From Eubacteriales bacterium (GTDB lineage: Bacteria > Bacillota > Clostridia > Oscillospirales > CAG-272): 62,687 nucleotides of DNA. Numbering within the stretch: the first letter of the stretch is position 1; every line of letters starts with the position of its first letter. Below the pieces are notes generated by a model, which was not told the DNA's origin, made no database searches, and saw only the letters and a program-made list of their open reading frames with translations. The DNA lies in NCBI GenBank assembly GCA_045532975.1, contig JAZSGX010000067.1:1-62687 (forward strand). Direction: 5' to 3'. Positions 8,003-62,687 of this stretch are shown here, piece after piece. The translations under genes were made by a program, and so were the position numbers.

Positions 8003-9601
8003 ATGAAGAAAAAACTGTTTTTGACAATCATTATGGCAACTGTTCTTGTTTTGGTACTTGCATTTGCAGTGTCGGCAGACTCTGTTCATAACGAGAACAC
8101 GGTTGACTATAGTGCAACTGTAACACTTGGTGACGGAGCTGTGCTTCGTTTGTATGACGAAAACAAAGAAGCCCTTATTTGGTACATTGACGGTACAGAT
8201 GAGGGAGGAAAGACAAAATATTCATCGGTCCGCGCGGATGACTCTAATAGGGTAACGTGGAAAGCAGAAAGCTGGGACGAGGTTCAAAACTGGGACGCCC
8301 TGCTTGAGGATGGAAAAACATCAATTAAAAGCAAAATAGTAGTAATTAATTTGATGGACGATGATGTTGTTAGAAATACAGGTAACGCTAATTATCTCTA
8401 CAAGCCTATGAACAACTTTAAGCGGTTGTTTGAGAGTATGAAAAACCTTGAATACTGTTACCTAAGACTTGATACGAAGCAAATTAACACAAACTCCTTT
8501 TCTGGATGCACCAAATTGAAGTATATAAACTTAGAGAATTTGACACAACTTCAAAGAATGGCACAGAACAGTCAGTTCAGCGGATGCACAAGCTTGTTTG
8601 ACGGACAGGTGCTTGACCTTACAAGAACTCAATTATACGAATTTGAGGGCTCCTCAACCTTTAGCGGCGTTCCCTTTAAAGGTGTAAAATTCCCGGAAAC
8701 AATGGCTAAAGTGGGTAGTGGAACAACATTTAATAACTGCACAAAGCTTGAATTTGTCTCCATAGGTAACAAGGCAAGATTCTACGGCACACCGTTTAGT
8801 GGTTGCACATCACTTAAAGCAATTTACTATGTTGGTACATTAGACGAATTAACTGCTTCAATCGGTAGCAGCGTGGTTACCGCTACAACAAAATCTTATG
8901 CTGAATACAAGGCGCTTTCCGACAAGAGTGGAGTATATGCTGTGTATAATTACAGCAGATGCGAGGCGTTTAACCAAGGCGTACACGGAACAATAAATGT
9001 AACAAATGCTTGCGTTGGTATTTGCTCAGTGTGTGATGAGACAGTTGTTAACCATGTGGACGGAAATACAGGCGTAACAATTACATATTCGAATTATGCA
9101 GATGAAGGAACAAAAACATTAAAATGTAATAACACAGGCTGTACATATAACACAACAGAAGCGGCTTCTAAACTCTTTACATGTCTCGGCTATTCAGCAC
9201 CTGAGGACGGCAGAGGTGGAATTGCAATCGGCTTTACTGTAAATAATGAAGCTATTAAAGAATACACAGAAGCAACAGGAAAAACCTTAAAATACGGTGT
9301 ATTTGCAGTATTAAAGGATAGACTTGGTGATAATGATGTGTTTGCAGATGATGGCACAGTGGCAGAGGGTGTTATCGATGTTGAAATTACAAAATACGAG
9401 TTTGTAGTATTTGAAATTAAAATAGTTGGCTTTACTGATGAGCAGAAAGATACAAAGCTTGCTATGGGTGCATATGTAGCTGTAACAGATGGTGAAACTA
9501 CAAAATATTCATATATGCAGGACGACTCCAAGGGCGTAAAGGTAGGAAATTACTACTTTGTTTCATATAACAATATTGTAGGCAAGCCTGCAGTAGAATA
9601 A
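8003..9601 (+). CDS. Secreted BspA-type leucine-rich-repeat protein with C-terminal Cys-motif plus 'GYS' domain (paralog 1)
   Basis: Signal peptide MKKKLFLTIIMATVLVLVLAFAVSA. F.GC..L LRR units. C-terminus CNNTGC...LFTCLGYS...KYGVFAVL is shared with four other proteins in the window. Confidence 0.8.
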   Translation: MKKKLFLTIIMATVLVLVLAFAVSADSVHNENTVDYSATVTLGDGAVLRLYDENKEALIWYIDGTDEGGKTKYSSVRADDSNRVTWKAESWDEVQNWDALLEDGKTSIKSKIVVINLMDDDVVRNTGNANYLYKPMNNFKRLFESMKNLEYCYLRLDTKQINTNSFSGCTKLKYINLENLTQLQRMAQNSQFSGCTSLFDGQVLDLTRTQLYEFEGSSTFSGVPFKGVKFPETMAKVGSGTTFNNCTKLEFVSIGNKARFYGTPFSGCTSLKAIYYVGTLDELTASIGSSVVTATTKSYAEYKALSDKSGVYAVYNYSRCEAFNQGVHGTINVTNACVGICSVCDETVVNHVDGNTGVTITYSNYADEGTKTLKCNNTGCTYNTTEAASKLFTCLGYSAPEDGRGGIAIGFTVNNEAIKEYTEATGKTLKYGVFAVLKDRLGDNDVFADDGTVAEGVIDVEITKYEFVVFEIKIVGFTDEQKDTKLAMGAYVAVTDGETTKYSYMQDDSKGVKVGNYYFVSYNNIVGKPAVE

Positions 9602-9612
9602 GAGGTGGTACA

Positions 9613-9768
9613 ATGAAATATGTAACACCAAAATATGAAATGTCTGTTATAGAAACAGAAGATATTATAACTGCTTCATCTAGTCAGGCTGCTAATTATG
9701 AGATTGAAGAAAAGGATGATGGAAGTGGAAATATCTTAATAGATATAGGCAAGCTATTTTTCAGTTAA
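9613..9768 (+). CDS. 51-aa acidic peptide, MKYVTPKYE family
   Basis: Not in the ORF track (under 60 aa). AGAGGTGG RBS 5 nt upstream, 11 nt after the stop of the preceding gene, followed by a hairpin. Homologous N-terminus to the ORF at 34193-34360. Confidence 0.6.
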   Translation: MKYVTPKYEMSVIETEDIITASSSQAANYEIEEKDDGSGNILIDIGKLFFS

Positions 9769-19479: not shown

Positions 19480-19599
19480 GACAATTTGGTTCAAAAAGGT
19501 CAATGGCTTTGATTTCCCAAAGGCTACATCTTGACAAATCTATACAATAATGTTATAATTACTATGTATCGTTGTATCAATATTGTCAAGGAGGATAAT

Positions 19600-21267
19600 A
19601 TGACGAGGAAAAAGCTGATATTGATTTTGGCAATAGCGTCATGCTTGATGCTTTTGTTTGCTATAACTACGTTTGCGGCAGCATCGGATGGTATACTTGC
19701 GTATTATGATTATAATGGAGCGGGTAACGCGTCCCTTCCCGGTTATGCGCTTTTGCGAGAGGTTTATATAGTTGGCGAGAAAAACGGAACGTTGACAATT
19801 GAGGGAATCAGAGATAAGGTAATTGGCAGTACGCCTACTGCCGCAATAAAGATAAATACAATATATATTCCTCAGGGTGTTAATTATGTGAACATGCAAA
19901 ACTCTACAAACTCAGGCGTTAAAAGGGTCGTTTTCGATTACCGCTGTGACGTAAGAGTTGATGCCTTGGATATACAAGGCTTGGAGGAAATTGTTATTTC
20001 AGGTGAGGCTGCTAAGGTCACCTTTGGTGCTAACTGTTCTGCTACTACACTTAAAAAGATTTCCATAACATCCTCTCGTGCAACAGTTGTTTTTGAGGAA
20101 AATGCTTTTTCCAACAGAGCGCTTTTGAACACGCTTGATATTTCCAAGTGCACTGATTTGGAAATTGTATCGTCATATACCTTTGGCAAAAACGCCTTTC
20201 GTAATACAGCTATCAAGGAATTGAAGCTCGATGATGACCGCGCAACCTACAAGTTCAATGGAATTGGTGCGTTTTCTAACTGCGCAAAGCTTGAGAATGT
20301 TTATCTTGGCAAAACGGTAACGGACGTTGGTGATAATGCCTTTGAAAACTGTAATGCTTTGAAGCTCGTGTATGCGGACGCATTGACCACGGTTGGCTCA
20401 AATGCGTTTGCTATAAGTAAGGGCTCGGTGGATAGGTTCTTGTTGAAGGTATATATACACACAAATGGGCTTGTTAGTATTAATAGAAACGCCTTTACTA
20501 ACCGTAATTCCAACGGTGTGGTTGTGTGCACTCTGGAAACCGATAACAAAACCTACGATAATTGTAATTATGAGCTTCACTTTGGTATACCACATAAGTA
20601 CACTGAGGTGACGGGTATTTCTACCTGTTACGTTACTTATACAACGGATTGTCCTTGCCAAAAAATAGGCAACGCATATTATCGGCTCTACGAAAAGGGC
20701 AAGAATGAGCAGGCTGTGATGATGGTTTCCGGTCCGGTTACAGGTAAGGATGTTGTTCATACCTTCTCTGACGCTCATAAGCTTGAATACCCTAACGGAA
20801 TAGAGGCGGACGGTGTTGTTCTCCGTCAGTGCGCGTCATGCGGCTTGATTGCGGAAAACGAGAAAAGAGTTGACCCTGTGTTGATTTTTTTGGGATATTC
20901 CGCTTCAGAAGCAGGTACAAAAACCTTGGTTGCAGGCGTTAGATTCAATTATGAATCCTTAAAGCTTTATGAGAAAATAAACGGTGAGACTCTTGACTAC
21001 GGCTTTGTTTTGGCAGGTGAGGATAAGCTTGGCGGCGCTAACCCCTTTAACGAGGACGGTACTCTTGCAAGCGGTGCTATGAAAATGAGCATGGTGCAAG
21101 AGGGCTATTATGAAAGTGTTATGAAAATTTCCGGCTTTACCGCAAATGCAGACAAAAAAATAATATTTGCTGTTTATATTAAAATGGGTAAGGAAATTAA
21201 ATATTTCCAGGGCGATGGAGAAACTAAAAAGCCTGTGGGCGTTTCTTATTCTCAGTTCGCCAAATGA
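19600..21267 (+). CDS. Secreted BspA-type LRR protein with C-terminal Cys-motif plus 'GYS' domain (paralog 2)
   Basis: AAGGAGGA RBS. Signal peptide MTRKKLILILAIASCLMLLFAITTFAAA. LRR units (NAFENCNALKLVY...). CASCG...PVLIFLGYS...DYGFVLAG. Confidence 0.8.
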   Translation: MTRKKLILILAIASCLMLLFAITTFAAASDGILAYYDYNGAGNASLPGYALLREVYIVGEKNGTLTIEGIRDKVIGSTPTAAIKINTIYIPQGVNYVNMQNSTNSGVKRVVFDYRCDVRVDALDIQGLEEIVISGEAAKVTFGANCSATTLKKISITSSRATVVFEENAFSNRALLNTLDISKCTDLEIVSSYTFGKNAFRNTAIKELKLDDDRATYKFNGIGAFSNCAKLENVYLGKTVTDVGDNAFENCNALKLVYADALTTVGSNAFAISKGSVDRFLLKVYIHTNGLVSINRNAFTNRNSNGVVVCTLETDNKTYDNCNYELHFGIPHKYTEVTGISTCYVTYTTDCPCQKIGNAYYRLYEKGKNEQAVMMVSGPVTGKDVVHTFSDAHKLEYPNGIEADGVVLRQCASCGLIAENEKRVDPVLIFLGYSASEAGTKTLVAGVRFNYESLKLYEKINGETLDYGFVLAGEDKLGGANPFNEDGTLASGAMKMSMVQEGYYESVMKISGFTANADKKIIFAVYIKMGKEIKYFQGDGETKKPVGVSYSQFAK

Positions 21268-32515: not shown

Positions 32516-32729
32516 AGAATACCTCTTTGATGATTTGTTAACAAGGTTCATTATATCACAGGCAGAGGTGGTTTTCAAGGTCTTTAAAAAAGGTGGTGTT
32601 TAAAATTGTGCAATTTTAACAAAAATGGCGGGCGAAATACCTTATTTGTTGAAAGGGCTTGACAAAACAAGGCGAATATGTTAACATAAACTGTCTATAT
32701 AATATAAAAGTCCTATAAGGAGAAAAGAA

Positions 32730-34175
32730 ATGAAAAAGAGAATTGTATTAGTTGCTTCTTTGGTTTTCGTTATTTGTTGCCTTTTCGCTATTTCGGCAAA
32801 TGCTGCCGTTTGTGCGGACGGTTGCACAGATAATTGGACGTTGACCTATGATGCCAACGGTTATCTCGGTACTGTTTCGGCTGAAAACCAATGCTCTACT
32901 TGTGGCACTGTTATTGAGAAAAAGAGCATTGAGCCAATGTTTGTTACCACAGGCTATTCCTACAATGAGGGAAATGGCGGTATCATACAGCAGTTTGCTG
33001 TGAATGAGGCATCTATTGAAGCTTTTGAGGAAATCACAGGCAAGAGTGTACAGTTCGGTGCTGTTATTGCTTCGGGTGCGGTATTGGAGGAAATCGGTAC
33101 AAGCCTTATTGATGCAAACGGTAACAGTGTTGACGAAAGAGTTTTTTCAGCTAACATTTCAAAGACGGAATGTGTTGTTTTTGACGTTATGATTAACAAC
33201 ATTCCCGAGGATGCTCGCTCAAGCGTTAGTCTTGTTTGCGGTGCGTTCATTATCGTCGGAGGCGAGGTTTCCTATATCGACAATGGTAAGGTTAGCGAAA
33301 ATGCGGTTGCTAATACCTATGACGAGGTAGTAGAAATTGTAACCAACCCTGGAACGGACGTTAAGAAGTCACTTAAGGTTCTCACCATCGGTAACAGCTT
33401 CTCGGATGACTCTATGGAGTACGTTTACAATATAGCTAAGGCGGCAGGCGTTGAATATGTTGAGCTTGGTAATGTTCGCCGTAGCAACGGTTCCTTGGCA
33501 AACCACATTGCTGACTTTAATTCAACGACTAAGAATTACGCATACAGACATTGGGCAGACGGTGCTACCGGTTGGGACCATAACTGGGACGCAAACTCAA
33601 CTCTTAAGGCTGTTCTTGAAAAGGGCACTGATTGGGATTACGTTGTGTTCCAGCAGGTAAGCACAGATTCCGGCAATGCTAACACTTACGACGATTTGAA
33701 TACTCTTATGGATTTGGTAAGACCCTACTGTCCTAACGCTAAGTTCGCTTGGCTTATGACTTGGTCATACAGAGCTGATTATGCATACTTAGAACCTACA
33801 TACGCGCAAATTGTATCCGCTGTTAACGAAAAGATTGTTACAAACGAAAATATTGACGTTATTATTCCTTGCGGTACTGCTATTGAAAATGCTAAATTGA
33901 GCGGTCAGTTCACTGATGTTCAGCTTCAAAGAGATTCTAAGCACTTGAACTACGGTATGGGTAGATATATTGCAAGTCTTACCTTCTTTAAGGCGCTGAC
34001 CGGATTGGATATTGATGATATGAATTATCCTACAAAGGATACAGAGGGACATACAGCTACCTCGGGAAGCAATGCAAACTATCAAGCAAGCTTTAAGTTT
34101 ACAGATGCGCTCAATGAGGTTTGTATCGAGTGTGCAAACAACGCTATTGAAACACCCTTCGCTACAACAAAGTAA
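32730..34175 (+). CDS. Secreted protein: N-terminal Cys-motif plus 'GYS' domain fused to an SGNH/GDSL-like esterase domain (paralog 3)
   Basis: Signal peptide, then CSTCG...PMFVTTGYS...QFGAVIASG, then LKVLTIGNSFSDDS (SGNH block I). Confidence 0.75.
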   Translation: MKKRIVLVASLVFVICCLFAISANAAVCADGCTDNWTLTYDANGYLGTVSAENQCSTCGTVIEKKSIEPMFVTTGYSYNEGNGGIIQQFAVNEASIEAFEEITGKSVQFGAVIASGAVLEEIGTSLIDANGNSVDERVFSANISKTECVVFDVMINNIPEDARSSVSLVCGAFIIVGGEVSYIDNGKVSENAVANTYDEVVEIVTNPGTDVKKSLKVLTIGNSFSDDSMEYVYNIAKAAGVEYVELGNVRRSNGSLANHIADFNSTTKNYAYRHWADGATGWDHNWDANSTLKAVLEKGTDWDYVVFQQVSTDSGNANTYDDLNTLMDLVRPYCPNAKFAWLMTWSYRADYAYLEPTYAQIVSAVNEKIVTNENIDVIIPCGTAIENAKLSGQFTDVQLQRDSKHLNYGMGRYIASLTFFKALTGLDIDDMNYPTKDTEGHTATSGSNANYQASFKFTDALNEVCIECANNAIETPFATTK

Positions 34176-34192
34176 TAAGGAGGTAGATAACA

Positions 34193-34360
34193 ATGATAAA
34201 GTATGTAAAGCCAACCTATGAAACGGAAGGCGTAGATGTAAATGACGTTATTTTAGCCTCCCCTGTAATGGACCTTGTTGGAGAGGGCACTCTCGGTAAT
34301 ATAACCGGCCCTAAGGCGCAGGTGTCTATGGATTACAGCGCGCTTTTCGGTAACAGATAA
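34193..34360 (+). CDS. 55-aa peptide, MKYVTPKYE family (second member)
   Basis: Not in the ORF track. AAGGAGG RBS. Starts 17 nt after the stop of paralog 3. MIKYVKPTYE...NDVILAS parallels MKYVTPKYE...EDIITAS at 9613-9768. Confidence 0.6.
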   Translation: MIKYVKPTYETEGVDVNDVILASPVMDLVGEGTLGNITGPKAQVSMDYSALFGNR

Positions 34361-34371
34361 AAATCAAAATG

Positions 34372-34411
34372 AAAAGAGCCTTTGCGAGAAAAAACGCAAA
34401 GGCTCTATTTT
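34372..34411. terminator. Bidirectional terminator
   Basis: AAAAGAGCCTTTGCG-agaaaaaa-CGCAAAGGCTCT plus ATTTT. Confidence 0.8.
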
Positions 34412-34847
34412 AGTTAACGGTTGGCAAGTCGGCAGATGCAACTAAGGTGGCGGGAATGGGGGAGGGATGGATTTCGGTATTCTTTGGTGGCTCTGTCCGT
34501 CCGGCGGAAAGACCGAAGGAAACGAAAAGCGCTTCGTTTACGCTTCCCATTGCTCCCTCGTCCAAGTGACCCATTTTTTCCTTTAGACGCACCTTGTCTA
34601 TGGTGCGGATTTGCTCCAAGAGAATGACGGAATCCTTTAAGAGTCCTACCTGTGAGGCGGTGACGTCAATATGGGTTGGCAGCTTTGCCTTTGACATTTT
34701 GCTTGTAATGGCGGCGGCAATTACTGTGGGACTGTATTTGTTGCCCACGTCGTTTTGCACAATCAAAACAGGGCGAAGTCCCCCTTGCTCCGACCCCACC
34801 ACAGGGCTTAAATCTGCATAATATATATCTCCTCGTCTGATATTCAA
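34410..34847 (-). CDS. mazF: MazF/PemK/EndoA-family endoribonuclease toxin with about 30-aa C-terminal extension
   Basis: [30 protein letters not shown] and [10 protein letters not shown] are MazF/EndoA hallmarks. TTG start after AGGAGTGA. Own TATAAT promoter. Confidence 0.85.
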
Positions 34848-45713: not shown

Positions 45714-48700
45714 TTATCTAATTCCGTAGTACTGTGCGAGCTTGTCAACGTCATCCTTGTCAAAGGCACCGTCGAAAATCATAAACTCGTCCACGGTTCC
45801 CGGCATTGCGTAGGAGTAGGTTCCTCTACCATCCTGACCGATGTTTAAGCTATACGCGGTGTCAACGGAATCCTCTTGGAGGCTTGCGGGAATATCTATC
45901 GTAAAAATGGTTTCAAAGTCTATACATACGCCAATTTTGTGGTTTGTACGGTCAACGAATACGATGAAGTGAACCCATCCGTCTTGATAGTCAGCGGGCA
46001 GTGATACCTCGCGGTCCACACGGTTGGAGCCGTCGCCAAAGTTGAACTTAACCTTTGTCTGGGTGAGTGAGAAGGCGATACCGTTATATTTGCCATTGTC
46101 CCAGTTTTTGTTTGAGAAAATACATGGGTCTGCATTGCTTGATGTTACACCGTCGGTATTTAACCAAAATGCAACGGTAAAGCTATCTGTTCCCTTGGCG
46201 AAGTTGTTAATTGAAGCGTATCCTTTATCAAGAACAATGCCTTGACCGAAGTAACCATCTTCGTAGTCGACGGTTTTGCCCACGCTTGTGTTTCCGCCAC
46301 AGGCGTCTGTAACATTACCGTCAAAGGTCAGATATGTGGAAAGGGTGTGGTCTGTTATGAATTTATCAACGTAGCCGTCGCTATCCTTTTCAGGGGTTGG
46401 CTCACTTGTGTGGTGACGTCCCGGTACGTTTGGACGTTCTTCAGCAATGATGCCTTCAAATAAGCCAGATGGAACTCTTGAGGTCCATTTGCTTGGCTGT
46501 TCAAAGTAACCAAGGGCGTGGAGAACAATGGAGGCAGTATCGCGGATTTCCATATCCTCAATGGTTGCATTTTGAACGTTTTTGCCGGTTGCTGCGAACA
46601 TAACGTATTTTTCAGCGTCAGTCAAGCCGCCGTGACTTGTGCCTGAGCCACCGTGGTCTGCGGTTACGATAAACAAGGTGTCGTCAATCGCACCGTTTGC
46701 CTCGTATGCCTCATAAATTCTTCCGATATAACTGTCAATTTCTGCTATCTTTGAAAGCTGTGTAGCGGAGCCGTAGCCGCTGCTGTGTCCTGCACCGTCT
46801 GCCTCGTCAAACTGAACGAACATAGCGGTTGGAGTGTTGCTTTCAAGATATGCAAGGATTTCTTCTGTCAACGCAGAGTCTGATGATTGGGTTGCCTTAT
46901 GCACGCCAATATCGTCCTCAATAATACCAACGTTGATTGGATTCCAGTTACAGAAGGAGGCAAGGACTGCATCCGGGTTATTTTCTCTTATAACACGGAA
47001 GAAGCTTGGATATTCGGAATTGCTTGGATATGCAGATGATACATTATCGTTTGTCAGGCCGTGTACTTGCGGAGTAACACCGTGTAAAAGTGAGCCCCAA
47101 CACTGAGCACTGATTGTAGGATTAGAGGTTAAGCAGTTATATGTTGTAGCACCGTTTGCAAAAATGCTGTCGATGTTCGGCGTTTGAGCATTTTGGAAGA
47201 ATGTGCCTGCACCGTCAACACCGATAATTACAACGTGCTGATATGCGTCGCTTGGGCTTGCAATTACCGTAACTGTAAATTTACCTGTAAAGCCCTTTGC
47301 GGTTGCAGTAACCTCAATACCTTTGTTTCTTGTAACACCTGTGAGAATGTAGTTATCAACGGAAACAACCGAGCTGTCAAAGCTATATGTCAGCTCTCTT
47401 TCGTGTCCGCGCACGGTAACTGTTTTTGGAAGCTCTATGGAATGTCCGATTTCTACGGTAATGTCATCAAGAGCAACGACTTCCTTGCTTGATATCTCGT
47501 CCAGTGTGTCTCCGTAGGAAGTGGAGGAATAGATTTCGCCCTCGCTTGGCTTGTCTCCTTGGAGATATTCGTATTCGGTAACACCGTTAAATTTAGTTGC
47601 AGTATAAGCGCCCATTACAAGCCCTGTATATTCGCGCTTTTCGGTTATGCCGATAACCTTCAACTCAAAAAGGTTGGCGGAATATTTTGTTATGTCGGCG
47701 CTTAAAACACCTGTTGCAGGCTTACCGTCTGCACCGAAAATGTCTTTTTTACCGATTACGTCCTTGAGAACTACAAAAATACCGTAGTTGATAGTCTTGT
47801 CTGAGATTTCCTCATATTTTGCAAGGGCTTCCTTGTTTACGGAGTAGCCTATTGCAAATGAGCCGCTTGCACCCTCAAAAACGGAATAACCGACAAAAGT
47901 AAACAGTGGCTCGAATACGCCCTTTGCCTCATATTCCTCACCGCAGATGGAGCAAAGGAAGTTACCGTTGCCTCTTTCGAGATAGCTTGTGTAGGACATT
48001 GAAAGCATGCCACCGTCGGTATTGTGGCCAAGGGCAGGATTTGCCTTTGAATACTCCTCGTCGATGTAGCTGATGTTTGTCTGTGTTTCATCGTCATATG
48101 TATAAACAACTTGAATTGCAGGGGAATCGCAATCAGCAGGAGTAACTATATTGAGCACACCGTTTCTTGCTGCGCTTTGTCTTTTTAAAACCACGGACTT
48201 GTAGGTGGAGTTAATAAGCGTAGCAAAGCCACCGCCCGAGGAGTCACCGTTCAAGTTGATGTCATTAAAGGAGCTGTTTGTCGCTATGATATGATTTGTG
48301 TCGCTGTCTGAATAATAATCGCCGATTACAGTATTGTTGATGTAAATATATTCCTTACCTATAAGAGAATCAGCATGCCAGCTATCAATATATAAACTCG
48401 CGATTCTGCTATTGTTGATATAGCTGTCCGCCAGAATGTTATTAATAGCTATTCTGTCCGCATAGGTATGGTCCATTTGGAAGGAAATATCTGATTTACC
48501 GGAGCTTTTGAAATGAATAGTCCTGCAGGTCCTATCCTTGTTGTTAAAGAAGCAGGTATCAAATTTAAGATTTGTGGTGCCTGAAGCATGGCCGTCCTTT
48601 TGGTAAATAAGCTCGTCTTCACTGACAACTATGGCGTTTTTGATGGTTAAATCTCCCTGTACAATATAAAATCCGATGTAACCACCATAATAGTCAACGC

Positions 48701-49211
48701 CGTTTGACATAGCTTTGGCATTTACCTTTGTCACGTCAAAGCCTTCTTGTACCTCTTCAATGGTCCTGTTACCAATCAAGGTAAGGCAAGCGCCTTGGTT
48801 GTTGATAAAAAAGCCTGCGTATCTGTTGTCATCGGGAATCCACCAATAGTGACCGTTAAAATAAACGTTCATTTTTACTGCCTTGTCAAGTCGGATGCCC
48901 GAGCCTGTGGGGTTGCTTGGGTTTGTGCCCATGCAGTAGCTTACGTTTTCTGCAAGAATCAAATTTAAGGTCTTGCCGTCAAATTGATTTACAAAATACG
49001 TAGAATCGGCTGCTGTTGAGTCGCTGTATGAGGAATAAAGCTTCTCGATACCGATAACGCTTTTGCCCTCATCCTTTAATGTGTTCGCAAGGTCTGATTC
49101 TTCACTTTGTACTACGTAATAGGTGTTTTCACCCTCTGCCGCCAACGATACAACAGAAAGGGCGAAAATTAAGGAAAGCACAAAAGTGAGAATTAAAAGT
49201 GTTCTTTTCAT
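45714..49211 (-). CDS. Large secreted multidomain protein: beta-helix-like region, Cys-motif plus 'GYS' domain, Ig-like, alkaline-phosphatase-superfamily phosphodiesterase, LamG-like (paralog 4)
   Basis: Signal peptide MKRTLLILTFVLSLIFALSVVSLAAE. CSICG...PLFTFVGYS...NYGIFVVL. VIIGVDGAG...DEADGAGHSSG...VTADHGG. C-terminus FTVAFWLN...DEFMIFD. Confidence 0.8.
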   Translation of the reverse strand: MKRTLLILTFVLSLIFALSVVSLAAEGENTYYVVQSEESDLANTLKDEGKSVIGIEKLYSSYSDSTAADSTYFVNQFDGKTLNLILAENVSYCMGTNPSNPTGSGIRLDKAVKMNVYFNGHYWWIPDDNRYAGFFINNQGACLTLIGNRTIEEVQEGFDVTKVNAKAMSNGVDYYGGYIGFYIVQGDLTIKNAIVVSEDELIYQKDGHASGTTNLKFDTCFFNNKDRTCRTIHFKSSGKSDISFQMDHTYADRIAINNILADSYINNSRIASLYIDSWHADSLIGKEYIYINNTVIGDYYSDSDTNHIIATNSSFNDINLNGDSSGGGFATLINSTYKSVVLKRQSAARNGVLNIVTPADCDSPAIQVVYTYDDETQTNISYIDEEYSKANPALGHNTDGGMLSMSYTSYLERGNGNFLCSICGEEYEAKGVFEPLFTFVGYSVFEGASGSFAIGYSVNKEALAKYEEISDKTINYGIFVVLKDVIGKKDIFGADGKPATGVLSADITKYSANLFELKVIGITEKREYTGLVMGAYTATKFNGVTEYEYLQGDKPSEGEIYSSTSYGDTLDEISSKEVVALDDITVEIGHSIELPKTVTVRGHERELTYSFDSSVVSVDNYILTGVTRNKGIEVTATAKGFTGKFTVTVIASPSDAYQHVVIIGVDGAGTFFQNAQTPNIDSIFANGATTYNCLTSNPTISAQCWGSLLHGVTPQVHGLTNDNVSSAYPSNSEYPSFFRVIRENNPDAVLASFCNWNPINVGIIEDDIGVHKATQSSDSALTEEILAYLESNTPTAMFVQFDEADGAGHSSGYGSATQLSKIAEIDSYIGRIYEAYEANGAIDDTLFIVTADHGGSGTSHGGLTDAEKYVMFAATGKNVQNATIEDMEIRDTASIVLHALGYFEQPSKWTSRVPSGLFEGIIAEERPNVPGRHHTSEPTPEKDSDGYVDKFITDHTLSTYLTFDGNVTDACGGNTSVGKTVDYEDGYFGQGIVLDKGYASINNFAKGTDSFTVAFWLNTDGVTSSNADPCIFSNKNWDNGKYNGIAFSLTQTKVKFNFGDGSNRVDREVSLPADYQDGWVHFIVFVDRTNHKIGVCIDFETIFTIDIPASLQEDSVDTAYSLNIGQDGRGTYSYAMPGTVDEFMIFDGAFDKDDVDKLAQYYGIR

Positions 49212-49519
49212 AAGGTTTCTCCTTTCAAGGTATAACTCCTTCAAATAAAGTTATATTTAATAATTTAATTGTACAACATTATGAAAGAGTTTACAAGTGT
49301 ATAAACACATTTTCTGCGTTTTGACTAAAAATTGTTGCTTTTTTTGTTGAGGCCTACAAAAAATATGTTGCAATTTCAACAATTTTATGACGTTGGCGGT
49401 GGCTATCTGAGCTGTCGAATTTTGATGTGAGCATTAGCACATAAAAATAAACGCTTGTCAAATTAATGGAACGATACGCAGAAAAAGGTGGGGCTTATGT
49501 TAGCGTTTGCATTAAAAAC

Positions 49520-61191: not shown

Positions 61192-62687
61192 ATGAGCAAG
61201 AGGTTTTTACTAACCGTTGCTGTTATGGCGCTTTTGATGTGCGCATTTGCAATGGTTGTGGGCGCAGCACCTGCAAAGCCAACCCTTGATGTTGACTTTA
61301 GCTCTGTTGCAGAAATTGATGGGTTTACCCCACCATCTCAGCTTTACGTAGGTACAGCTCAACGTGTTTTATTGGATGACGGAGAGGGCAATTATGTTAC
61401 ATATCCTACATACTACGTAACAAAGGATAGCGAAACTTTTGATTTTGACTTTTCAAAGCTTAACGCGGCACAGGCGGTACAGTATTCAAAGAAGTCTGTT
61501 GTAATGGTTGAAATTCCAAACGGAGTTAAAACGGTTTCCGGTAGCTATTTTGCAGGCACAGGTAACTTTCCGCTTTGCGTATCTGTTCAGTTCCCCGGTA
61601 CTGTAACAAGCTACGGCGGCAGTATGTTCCAAACTAATACTGTGATAAGAGTTGTTGAGTTTTTGGACGGTGAGGAGCCTGTTACAATGGGTGACGGTAT
61701 GTTTGGCGCTAACTGGCAAGCAGGTACTGCCAACCTTGAATATGTTAGATTCCCTAACAATCTTATCTCGATAGGTGCTAACACATTCGGTAAGTCTTAT
61801 CAGAACAAAACAATCATTCTTGGCGAAAATCTTCAGTCCATAGGCGCGGGCTTCTTTGGTGAGTCAACACCTGATAACAAGGATACAAACATCTATGTTT
61901 CTGACAAGTTTTTTGCTAATACCGATATCGTTGCAAGTGTTTTCGGTAACTTTGCTCAATATCACGGTAACATTTTGAAGCTTAGGTTGTTCTATGCTGG
62001 CTCAAAGGAAGCTGCTGAGGCGTTTGTTGAAAAGGGCAAGGCTGCTCAGAGCGGTTATGTGTTTGACAAAGCTACTATTGTTAGCAAGGATGAGTATGAC
62101 CCAAGCGTTCACAAGCTCACATCTGCTATCAGCATAATTATGATTTACGATTATGAAATTTGTGACCTGTTCTATGATGGTCACAACATGAGCAGTGAAG
62201 CGGAGATGAAATTCACAAGTTATTTCGAGCCTATCAAATTTGCATCCGTTTGTGAAAACGGCACTTGCACATATGCAGGCTATGACGATTCAAAGACAAT
62301 TGGCGCACTCTTTGTAAACTACGGTTACTCAATGACCGAGGTTGAAATTGGCGGCAAGCTTTCAATGTCACAGTTCTTCGGTATTGACAAGGCAAATCTT
62401 GAAAAATATACTACCTTGACAGGTAACGCCTTTGAGTATGGCTTTGTTGTTTCTTCAAACGCTGACCCAATGAACGAGGCAAACAGCGGCTTGATTGCAG
62501 AGGGCAAGACCTACATAACAACACAAAACGGATTTAAGCACGACTACTTTGCAGTTGCTGTTGCTGGATTTACAGACGCAACCGTTGATAACGCACTTAC
62601 ATTCTGCGTTTATGTTAAGGATGGAGCAAAGGTTTCCTACCTTGATAACGGTGAAACAGTTGAAACGGTAAATATGAAGAGCTACAA
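61192..62687 (+). CDS. Secreted LRR protein with Cys-motif plus 'GYS' domain (paralog 5), 3'-truncated by the window edge
   Basis: Absent from the ORF track because it has no stop. AAGGAG RBS. MSKRFLLTVAVMALLMCAFAMVVGAAP signal peptide. In frame to 62687. CENGTC...LFVNYGYS...EYGFVVSS. Confidence 0.75.
   Translation, partial: MSKRFLLTVAVMALLMCAFAMVVGAAPAKPTLDVDFSSVAEIDGFTPPSQLYVGTAQRVLLDDGEGNYVTYPTYYVTKDSETFDFDFSKLNAAQAVQYSKKSVVMVEIPNGVKTVSGSYFAGTGNFPLCVSVQFPGTVTSYGGSMFQTNTVIRVVEFLDGEEPVTMGDGMFGANWQAGTANLEYVRFPNNLISIGANTFGKSYQNKTIILGENLQSIGAGFFGESTPDNKDTNIYVSDKFFANTDIVASVFGNFAQYHGNILKLRLFYAGSKEAAEAFVEKGKAAQSGYVFDKATIVSKDEYDPSVHKLTSAISIIMIYDYEICDLFYDGHNMSSEAEMKFTSYFEPIKFASVCENGTCTYAGYDDSKTIGALFVNYGYSMTEVEIGGKLSMSQFFGIDKANLEKYTTLTGNAFEYGFVVSSNADPMNEANSGLIAEGKTYITTQNGFKHDYFAVAVAGFTDATVDNALTFCVYVKDGAKVSYLDNGETVETVNMKSY

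Follow-up and report, generated by a model that had tools for sequence, protein, structure and literature searches.

A small LppA-like precursor candidate encoded behind genes of secreted GYS-domain proteins in a gut clostridial genome

The window analyzed here is a 62,687-nucleotide (nt) stretch of DNA, contig C37 of the 1.98-Mb, 125-contig, 41% G+C assembly of a Eubacteriales bacterium. At positions 34193 to 34360 of its forward strand lies a small gene that encodes a 55-residue peptide and that directly follows the gene of a secreted protein bearing a domain designated GYS. The peptide is a candidate LppA-like precursor, by analogy with the lppA-K-B-S-D-N clusters of Bacillota, known as linear polyphosphorylated peptide (LPP) clusters (Popov et al., Nat Commun 2026; PMC13381572). 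The most economical reading of the evidence, and in our judgment a probable one, is that it belongs to a divergent and dispersed family of LPP-like precursors, each composed of a leader and a core, whose genes are wired to those of GYS surface proteins.

The LPP-type pathway itself is already known, and the unusual part is the placement of dispersed precursors behind surface-protein genes; the combination of one maturation operon with up to 23 precursor genes in the genus sets this case apart. Most of the precursors are coupled to genes of secreted GYS proteins, and peptide and GYS domain co-diverge, which points to the cell surface as their site of action, and the GYS domain is a concrete candidate partner for LPP-like peptides. 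Two uncharacterized families of gut bacteria are newly described here, a small protein and a predicted beta-sandwich of approximately 140 residues.

The peptide gene and its family

The gene begins with an ATG at 34193 and ends with a stop codon at 34358-34360 (55 codons). A ribosome-binding site, AAGGAGG (34177-34183, forward strand), lies 9 nt 5' of the ATG, and the TAA of the preceding gene (32730-34175) ends at 34175, 17 nt ahead of the start; a preliminary description of the locus had reported both features, and both can be read directly. The translation quoted in that description is likewise confirmed. Orthologues of the peptide share 75-93% identity with it, and a word-indexed protein search returned only five close ones. 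A profile built from the first five family members identified ten small open reading frames (ORFs) in this 2-Mb genome, and a search of the genome added an eleventh, on contig C45, which is cut by the contig end. The peptide encoded at 34193-34360 matches the family profile with an E value of 1.8e-21. It had been introduced as the second member of a family that now comprises, besides the 11 members in this genome, 169 clusters elsewhere (E<=1e-3; 12 clusters at E<=1e-10) in a profile search of 1.84 billion representatives. Among the best 150 of these 169 clusters, the peptides are 37-104 residues long and nearly all start with MKY or MKKY; no fused forms were found among these 150, all being of 104 residues or fewer. 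Four of the paralogues are nearly identical in protein sequence, and their similarity in DNA is confined to the ribosome-binding site and coding sequence, ending at the stop codon. The ratio of nonsynonymous to synonymous substitution (dN/dS) among these four is 0.09-0.32. Thus, the paralogues are under purifying selection, and the ORF at 34193-34360 is a real gene. The sequencing runs listed as containing it comprise 20 of DNA and none of RNA, a listing that does not bear on expression.

The general plan of the family is M-K-Y-x-x-P-x-Y, followed by D-V/I-I-x-A-S, a variable segment of 20-30 residues and a short tail such as ...LF, ...LFGNR or ...LGLR. The peptides are acidic and lack a conserved Cys. 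An alignment of 135 sequences shows no variation at Y4 and S23, and at least 90% of the sequences keep P7 and D18. On the basis of this alignment, the conserved N-terminal part (residues 1-23; 34193-34261), marked by Y4-x-x-P7-x-Y9, D18 and S23, is proposed to be a leader, and the Ser at its end is a putative phospho-acceptor. The variable C-terminal part (residues 24-55; 34262-34357), which contains the motif ...SALFG..., would be the core; across the family, leader sequences differ by a mean pairwise distance of 0.48 and core sequences by 0.77. In a structure model of the free peptide (predicted local distance difference test score, pLDDT, 74.7), residues 27-43 form a hairpin and residues 48-52 a short helix, over ...SALFG..., and residues 1-26 lack regular structure.

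Scans of both peptides of the window against Pfam and NCBIfam yielded no family, a query of the ESM Atlas with the peptide returned only 'hypothetical protein' clusters (0.86-0.88), and the peptide profile matched no PDB chain. Literature searches with the peptide motif strings and with the combination of kinase, PqqD and S24 retrieved nothing on this peptide family. Two papers that mine genomes for RREs, the recognition elements of peptides that are made on ribosomes and modified after translation (RiPPs), do not mention HPr, S24, kinase or signal peptidase in their text.

Association of the peptide with the GYS domain

The paralogous locus 8003-9768 repeats the gene order of 32730-34360, as had been noticed from the sequence alone. 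There, a 51-residue peptide recognized by the family profile (9613-9768, forward strand) follows, after a gap of 11 nt, the gene of a 532-residue secreted LRR_5 protein (8003-9601, forward strand) whose C-terminal GYS domain, found with our own hidden Markov model (HMM), occupies 9149-9583. The two peptides align at their N-termini only (10 of 22 residues identical, E 6e-6, BLASTP), and a degenerate DNA pattern for MKYV..P..YE has exactly two sites in the window, compared with 0.00 expected from 100 shuffles. The protein encoded upstream of the 55-residue peptide (32730-34175, forward strand) is 481 residues long and, according to profile scans, consists of a signal peptide, a GYS domain (residues 63-203; 32916-33338; own HMM, E 3e-36) and a DUF4886 domain (residues 216-447; 33375-34070; PF16227, E 3.3e-46), the latter presumably a member of the SGNH hydrolases. 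The two upstream proteins share a stretch of approximately 110 residues (38 of 110 identical, E 1e-11), residues 69-176 of the 481-residue protein and 390-494 of the 532-residue protein, over which Pfam has no match in either; beyond it, Pfam finds DUF4886 in the former and LRR_5 in the latter. This agrees with the earlier claim that the upstream proteins have only the GYS domain in common, apart from the signal peptides, which are also common to both.

The common stretch, as an HMM of 141 positions, matches 56 ORFs of this genome, mostly at their C-termini. GYS is thus found in approximately 3% of the genes of a 2-Mb genome, and genomes of the genus have 0-72 copies each; in a sample of 301 genomes from the order, the profile had no match in the other 300. 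A search with residues 383-532 of the leucine-rich repeat (LRR) protein retrieved 514 proteins at E<=1e-5, which carry LRR_5 or no Pfam domain and whose few source names are Ruminococcaceae, Oscillospiraceae and Clostridia bacterium assemblies. Many GYS copies lie at contig ends, which suggests that they break assemblies. No Pfam model covers the domain. Modeled from a 34-row alignment, the domain at 32916-33338 folds with high confidence (pLDDT 95.7) into a beta-sandwich with helices. The best Foldseek match of the model in the PDB is a DUF3823 protein (E 2e-3, TM score 0.37), and a wide VIA-align comparison retrieved immunoglobulin/fibronectin type III (Ig/FnIII)-like chains (best Z 6.2, root-mean-square deviation 3.5 Å over 100 residues). 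The modeled fold matches generic Ig/FnIII-like structures only, and GYS appears to be an uncharacterized beta-sandwich family, of about 140 residues, of secreted proteins.

Within this genome, six of the 11 peptide genes start between -4 and +17 nt from the stop codon of a GYS gene. A seventh copy, on contig C71, stands at the contig edge, preceded by 60 nt that align to the 3'-terminal part of a GYS gene, so that seven of the ten assessable copies lie behind a GYS-domain gene. The three remaining copies are solitary: the gene ahead of them, 77-245 nt away, is an oxidoreductase gene in one case, metA in another and an unknown gene in the third. No other recurrent small ORF was found behind the remaining GYS genes of this genome. 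Across 50 genomes of the genus, 44 have both peptide and GYS domain, five have neither (perhaps one clade), one has a single GYS copy only, and none has the peptide only, a distribution that is not at chance level. These genomes yielded 336 peptide and 1340 GYS matches, with copy numbers that correlate across all genomes (Spearman 0.78) and among the GYS-positive ones (0.70). Full-length peptide matches in the 301-genome order sample were restricted to the genome under study.

We sampled the context of 40 of the 150 listed peptide matches, drawn from 30 other genomes of the genus. A GYS-domain ORF ends between -4 and +71 nt from the peptide gene in 26 cases, whatever the position of the domain within the protein. 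Three further peptides stand 12-13 nt behind a large ORF that is cut by the 2.6-kb flank, one is at a contig end, five belong to one conserved solitary locus, and five are otherwise solitary. Overall, about one quarter of the peptides stand alone, and about one quarter of the GYS genes carry a peptide. The conserved solitary locus, found in five genomes (L069, L073, L075, L078, L083), encodes MKYTTP.YEVE...-type peptides 98-124 nt behind a gene for a 144-157-residue protein that starts MKHKYLLIDTSILP... or MGKYLLVDK... and is not a GYS protein.

The type of peptide also follows the architecture of the upstream protein. Peptides of the EGTLGNITG...LFGNR type, including that of 34193-34360, stand behind proteins with an N-terminal or internal GYS domain, and those of the ...YEIEQKDDGSGN... 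type behind LRR proteins with a C-terminal GYS domain. Among 32 pairs, GYS distances and peptide distances are correlated (Spearman 0.46), a value that none of 2000 permutations reached, and this co-divergence holds for leader and core separately. Because co-occurrence, adjacency and co-divergence agree, we conclude that the peptide goes with the GYS domain, as the preliminary description had proposed, and not with the LRR portion or the esterase portion.

In genomes beyond the genus, profile matches cover no more than the first 30 or so positions of small ORFs of the form MKKY-x-x-PE-h-E ... EDVIT-x-S, which have short acidic tails, often with a Trp. In 12 of 13 enlarged non-genus loci, the peptide gene lies 3-26 nt behind that of a large signal-peptide protein. 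These upstream proteins are varied (LRR_5, F5/8 type C, heparinase-like and others); their C-terminal 120 residues or so resemble one another and bear a distant likeness to GYS (hhalign probability 66%, E 5.7e-5, 94 columns).

One explanation of this association, the main rival to the precursor reading although a doubtful one, is that the peptide is a stand-alone small partner of GYS that undergoes no maturation. Its conserved N-terminus would bind the GYS beta-sandwich and its variable tail would be protein-specific, the peptide acting either in the cytoplasm, as a private export or folding helper, or outside, as a subunit. Direct adjacency, including start/stop overlap with GYS genes, speaks for such a partnership, and so do the co-divergence of the 32 pairs, the tracking of upstream-protein architecture by peptide subtype, and the distantly GYS-like C-termini of the non-genus neighbors. 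A complex prediction for GYS and peptide gave ipSAE values of 0.57, 0.55 and 0.57, and the highest value among three controls was 0.00. In the calibration of the prediction tool, the mark is reached by 116 of 157 solved complexes and by 2 of 215 mismatched pairs, and passing predictions at 0.60 or under comprise 18 of the 157 solved complexes and both of the passing mismatches. The runs share at least 95% of their contacts, and the pLDDT of the partner is 56-57. This prediction lends weak support to a peptide-GYS contact, and an N-terminus that the model shows as unstructured when free fits the same picture. On the other hand, the peptide has no export signal, whereas the GYS proteins have Sec-type signal peptides; a quarter of the peptides are solitary and three quarters of the GYS genes lack one; and the GYS domain folds confidently alone in the model. 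This explanation must also treat the link of the peptide to the PqqD operon described below as a phylogenetic coincidence.

A candidate maturation operon and its relation to LPP clusters

The genome encodes one stand-alone PqqD protein (92 residues; PF05402, E 6e-17), on the 2.3-kb contig C41; its best solved relative is the lasso RRE TbiB1 (E 3.4e-5). A neighboring gene encodes a 251-residue protein that resembles HprK_rel_A (TIGR04352, E 2e-6) and ScmC (E 3e-9), although neither match comes near its curated cut-off, and in which a GTGKST P-loop can be read; it has no match in Pfam and no PDB sequence match. The second neighbor, of 158 residues, resembles an archaeal-type signal peptidase (TIGR02228, E 1.2e-7, below the cut-off) and Peptidase_S24 (E 0.003), and GTSMMP, a His and GDN can be read in it; it too has no PDB sequence match. 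A relative's genome has these three genes as an operon, flanked by radC and a methyltransferase gene and lacking a precursor. One end of C41 (L009, 1-2271) resembles by eye the C-terminus of an IS30-type transposase (41-residue open frame), which may explain both the contig break and a possible loss of the operon from other assemblies by short-contig filtering.

The distribution of the PqqD homologue follows that of the peptide. Thirty-three of the 50 genus genomes have both, 11 the peptide only, none PqqD only, and six neither; assembly incompleteness predicts 6.8 +/- 2.3 PqqD misses among the 44 peptide-bearing genomes, and 11 were seen (P(>=11)=0.057). In the order sample, the homologue is present in 96 of 301 genomes, namely 25 of the 27 peptide-positive genomes versus 71 of the other 274 (odds ratio 36, among genomes that are kin). 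When 50 PqqD loci were fetched across the order, 37 contained the full triad and 46 the pair of PqqD and peptidase genes. Eight of the 50 (L090, L102, L104, L108, L109, L112, L122, L123) have a small ORF with the family leader upstream, on the strand of the kinase gene (HMM E 5e-4 to 6.8), and a ninth, L128, was recognized by eye. The genomes with such cis-encoded peptides had scored as peptide-negative, so that 27 of 301 is a lower bound. A partnership of peptide and GYS alone leaves both the enrichment and these related peptides upstream of the operon unexplained, as it does the invariant Ser at the border of leader and core; the 11 peptide-bearing genomes in which PqqD was not detected speak in its favor.

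Several further genes accompany the operon. At L105, L107 and L133, which belong to other genomes of the order, the PqqD and kinase genes are separated by a radical SAM gene and by the gene of a longer peptide that contains Cys. Many loci (L090 1749-2180; L102, L108, L121, L117, L119, L104, L114) have an ORF for an acidic, Ser/Thr-rich, lipoprotein-like protein 5' of the kinase gene, between it and the cis-encoded leader peptide, and the motifs EDPFSDW, GVEDWD and GDFGSLFG of these proteins echo the peptide tails ...GEWD, ...DPWG and ...SALFG. Putative S-layer-homology-domain protein genes (N-terminal repeats, by eye) adjoin the operon on its upstream side at L100, L104, L114, L115 and L122, which would be another association of the operon with the cell surface. 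Maturation of the peptide by a radical SAM enzyme was set aside: the sole SPASM enzyme of the genome adjoins a classic SCIFF peptide on C62. This SCIFF peptide gene and its radical SAM maturase (L010 343-1950) are unrelated to 34193-34360, and the other PqqD-like match of the genome is part of the SCIFF maturase.

LPP clusters encode a precursor of 35-200 residues whose N-terminus is conserved (YxxPxVLxHQxIxFETxxS) and whose C-terminus varies strongly, together with a kinase resembling HprK, a discrete RRE, an archaeal-type signal peptidase resembling SipW, an exporter resembling MsbA and LppN, an uncharacterized NTP transferase (PMC13381572). Once offered the leader by the RRE, the peptidase cleaves behind Thr-1, and the kinase adds several phosphates to Ser3 of the core; the role of the LPP peptides is unknown, and their clusters often lie within capsule loci (PMC13381572). 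The family described here resembles these precursors in its YxxP-bearing conserved N-terminus, in the Ser just past the leader and in its variable C-terminus, and its lengths of 37-104 residues fall within the LPP range. Y4-x-x-P7-x-Y9 fits the Y-x-x-P-x-[hydrophobic] motif through which LPP leaders bind the RRE (PMC13381572). At the level of domains, the genes for a PqqD-type RRE, a putative HprK-like kinase and a putative soluble, archaeal-type signal-peptidase-like protease stand side by side in both, no cyclase is present in either, and both are linked to cell-envelope loci. In contrast to LPP precursors, those described here are encoded outside the operon, dispersed over the genome (11 in this one, up to 23 in the genus) and mostly directly behind genes of secreted GYS-domain proteins, and the host, judged by the names on the nearest homologues, appears to be a gut clostridium, in contrast to an organism of the Bacillus type; the text of the LPP paper nowhere uses the words surface, adhesin or Clostridia (PMC13381572).

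We propose that the peptide gene shares a transcript with that of a secreted GYS-domain protein and that, in many paralogues, translation of the two is coupled; the gene arrangement itself is directly observed. The conserved N-terminus K-Y-x-x-P-x-Y ... D-V-I would bind the discrete PqqD-type protein, the HprK-like kinase would phosphorylate the invariant Ser23, and the signal-peptidase-like protease would cut off the leader around residues 20-22. The product would be a phosphorylated core of about 33-35 residues, which may then be exported. A single maturation operon would serve 10-23 precursor genes in each genome, the majority of them hard-wired behind GYS surface-protein genes, and direct contact between peptide and GYS may also occur. 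Prochlorosin-type precursors are likewise encoded by many scattered genes served by one enzyme; the likeness extends to a conserved leader and hypervariable cores, whereas the chemistry is different and each precursor here is physically coupled to a surface-protein gene. By analogy, the cohesin-dockerin pair also comes to mind, in that a beta-sandwich of about 140 residues in dozens of secreted proteins has a partner of about 55 residues whose binding is weakly predicted; unlike in that pair, the listed matches of GYS include no cohesin sequence or fold, and the peptide has neither calcium-binding repeats nor a signal peptide.

A number of observations weigh against this proposal. The peptide has no signal sequence, so the route of the core to an exported GYS domain is not accounted for. 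The putative kinase and peptidase are assigned by profile matches below curated cut-offs and have no sequence matches among solved structures. The peptide gene and the triad are on different contigs, C37 and C41. PqqD was not detected in 11 of the 44 peptide-bearing genus genomes, four of which are 90-94% complete, one with 23 peptide genes. Five genomes (four 90-94% complete, one 76% complete) were re-searched at the family level: G328, G316, G339 and G304 gave no PqqD match, and the sole match in G313 lies inside a 460-residue frame and is not stand-alone. The peptides of PqqD-negative genomes keep an intact N-terminus, and such near-complete genomes speak against a strict dependence on the operon. 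Of the 56 GYS genes in this genome, only six have a peptide gene behind them, in addition to the C71 copy, and the domains with a linked peptide are spread across the GYS tree (five changes for six peptide-linked labels, a number as low in 95 of 500 shuffles). The genus genomes are kin, so the co-occurrence statistics overstate independence. Finally, the leader YxxPxYExExhExxDVIxxS differs from the YxxPxVLxHQxIxFETxxS of LPP. By eye, the two have YxxP, a hydrophobic residue at position +5 and the terminal Ser in common, and nothing more; the spacing from Tyr to Ser is 19 here and 18 in LPP, position -3 is an invariant Asp here and Phe in LPP, and the positions of LPP Phe-3, Glu-2 and Thr-1 read D-V-I or V-I-T. 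Since the LPP consensus is unmatched in detail, the family would be a divergent branch and not part of the published LPP clade. The three-gene operon contains neither an exporter nor a nucleotidyltransferase gene, the exporter not having been sought genome-wide. Two PF14907 genes do occur, away from the operon: on C94 (22456-24796; L138, L139), two tandem PF14907 (NTP_transf_5) genes close a glycosyltransferase-rich polysaccharide locus.

An extension of the precursor reading, which we consider unlikely, sees peptide and GYS domain as complementary halves of a surface-display system not described before. The exported and matured phosphopeptide would be the docking site for the GYS beta-sandwich and thereby a RiPP-type anchor for dozens of LRR adhesins and enzymes. 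The phosphopeptide may join a wall or capsule polymer via polyphosphate with the help of the PF14907 transferases of the polysaccharide locus, and the conserved part of the peptide would serve maturation.

The operon also invites comparison with lasso peptides, whose leaders bind a PqqD-like recognition element through a Y-x-x-P-x-hydrophobic motif (PMC6784204). That the peptide is a lasso precursor would agree with its YxxPx[hydrophobic] motif and with the best NCBIfam and PDB matches of the PqqD protein, which are lasso B1 chaperones such as TbiB1, and is nevertheless highly improbable. The B2 protease family PF13471 has only one sub-threshold match in the genome (16.7 bits, inside a 1406-residue frame), the single strong Asn_synthase match (PF00733) is on another contig and looks like a housekeeping gene, the operon has no dedicated cyclase gene, and there is no Thr at -2 in the 55-residue peptide or conserved in the family. 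The product would be linear.

A quite improbable alternative is that the peptide is a secreted pheromone- or bacteriocin-like molecule, functionally unrelated to GYS, that rides on strongly expressed surface-protein transcripts. A leader with a variable core, many divergent copies per genome, and solitary copies that have their own terminators are all compatible with a signal or antagonist, and an export pump is among the components of the published LPP relatives (PMC13381572). The strict co-occurrence and co-divergence with GYS would then be left unexplained, no transporter, receptor or regulator gene adjoins any copy examined, and the acidic peptides lack a conserved Cys. Double-glycine leaders carry a GG/GA/GS cleavage motif with an ELxxIxGG pattern; this motif is absent from the peptide alignments, in which various residues (A, T, V, L, E and others) precede the invariant Ser.

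Other features of the window

Three more GYS domains were located in the window with the HMM. Two have no peptide gene behind them, one in the gene 19531-21267 (domain at 20854-21261, forward strand) and one inside the 1176-residue gene 45714-49244 (domain at 47499-47927, reverse strand); the third, in the gene 61192-62687 (domain at 62284-62685, forward strand), is truncated where window and contig end. The segment 10170-11527 (forward strand), downstream of the first peptide locus, contains two ORFs of 289 and 162 residues, which match no Pfam or NCBIfam family.

The two-gene unit 32730-34360 is preceded by a promoter-like site, TTGACA-17-TAACAT (32659-32687, forward strand), a candidate by consensus match only (10 of 12 positions). 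On its other side lies a convergent gene for a PemK/MazF-type toxin (34410-34847, reverse strand; PF02452, E 2e-34); a quick translation of the 450 nt upstream of this toxin gene revealed no obvious antitoxin ORF. Between the two, a hairpin of 12 pairs, seven of them G-C (34375-34406), scores as terminator-like on both strands, in line with the bidirectional terminator that the preliminary description had placed 3' of the peptide gene. The toxin gene ends 4 nt past this hairpin, which would serve as a common intrinsic terminator for the two convergent transcripts.

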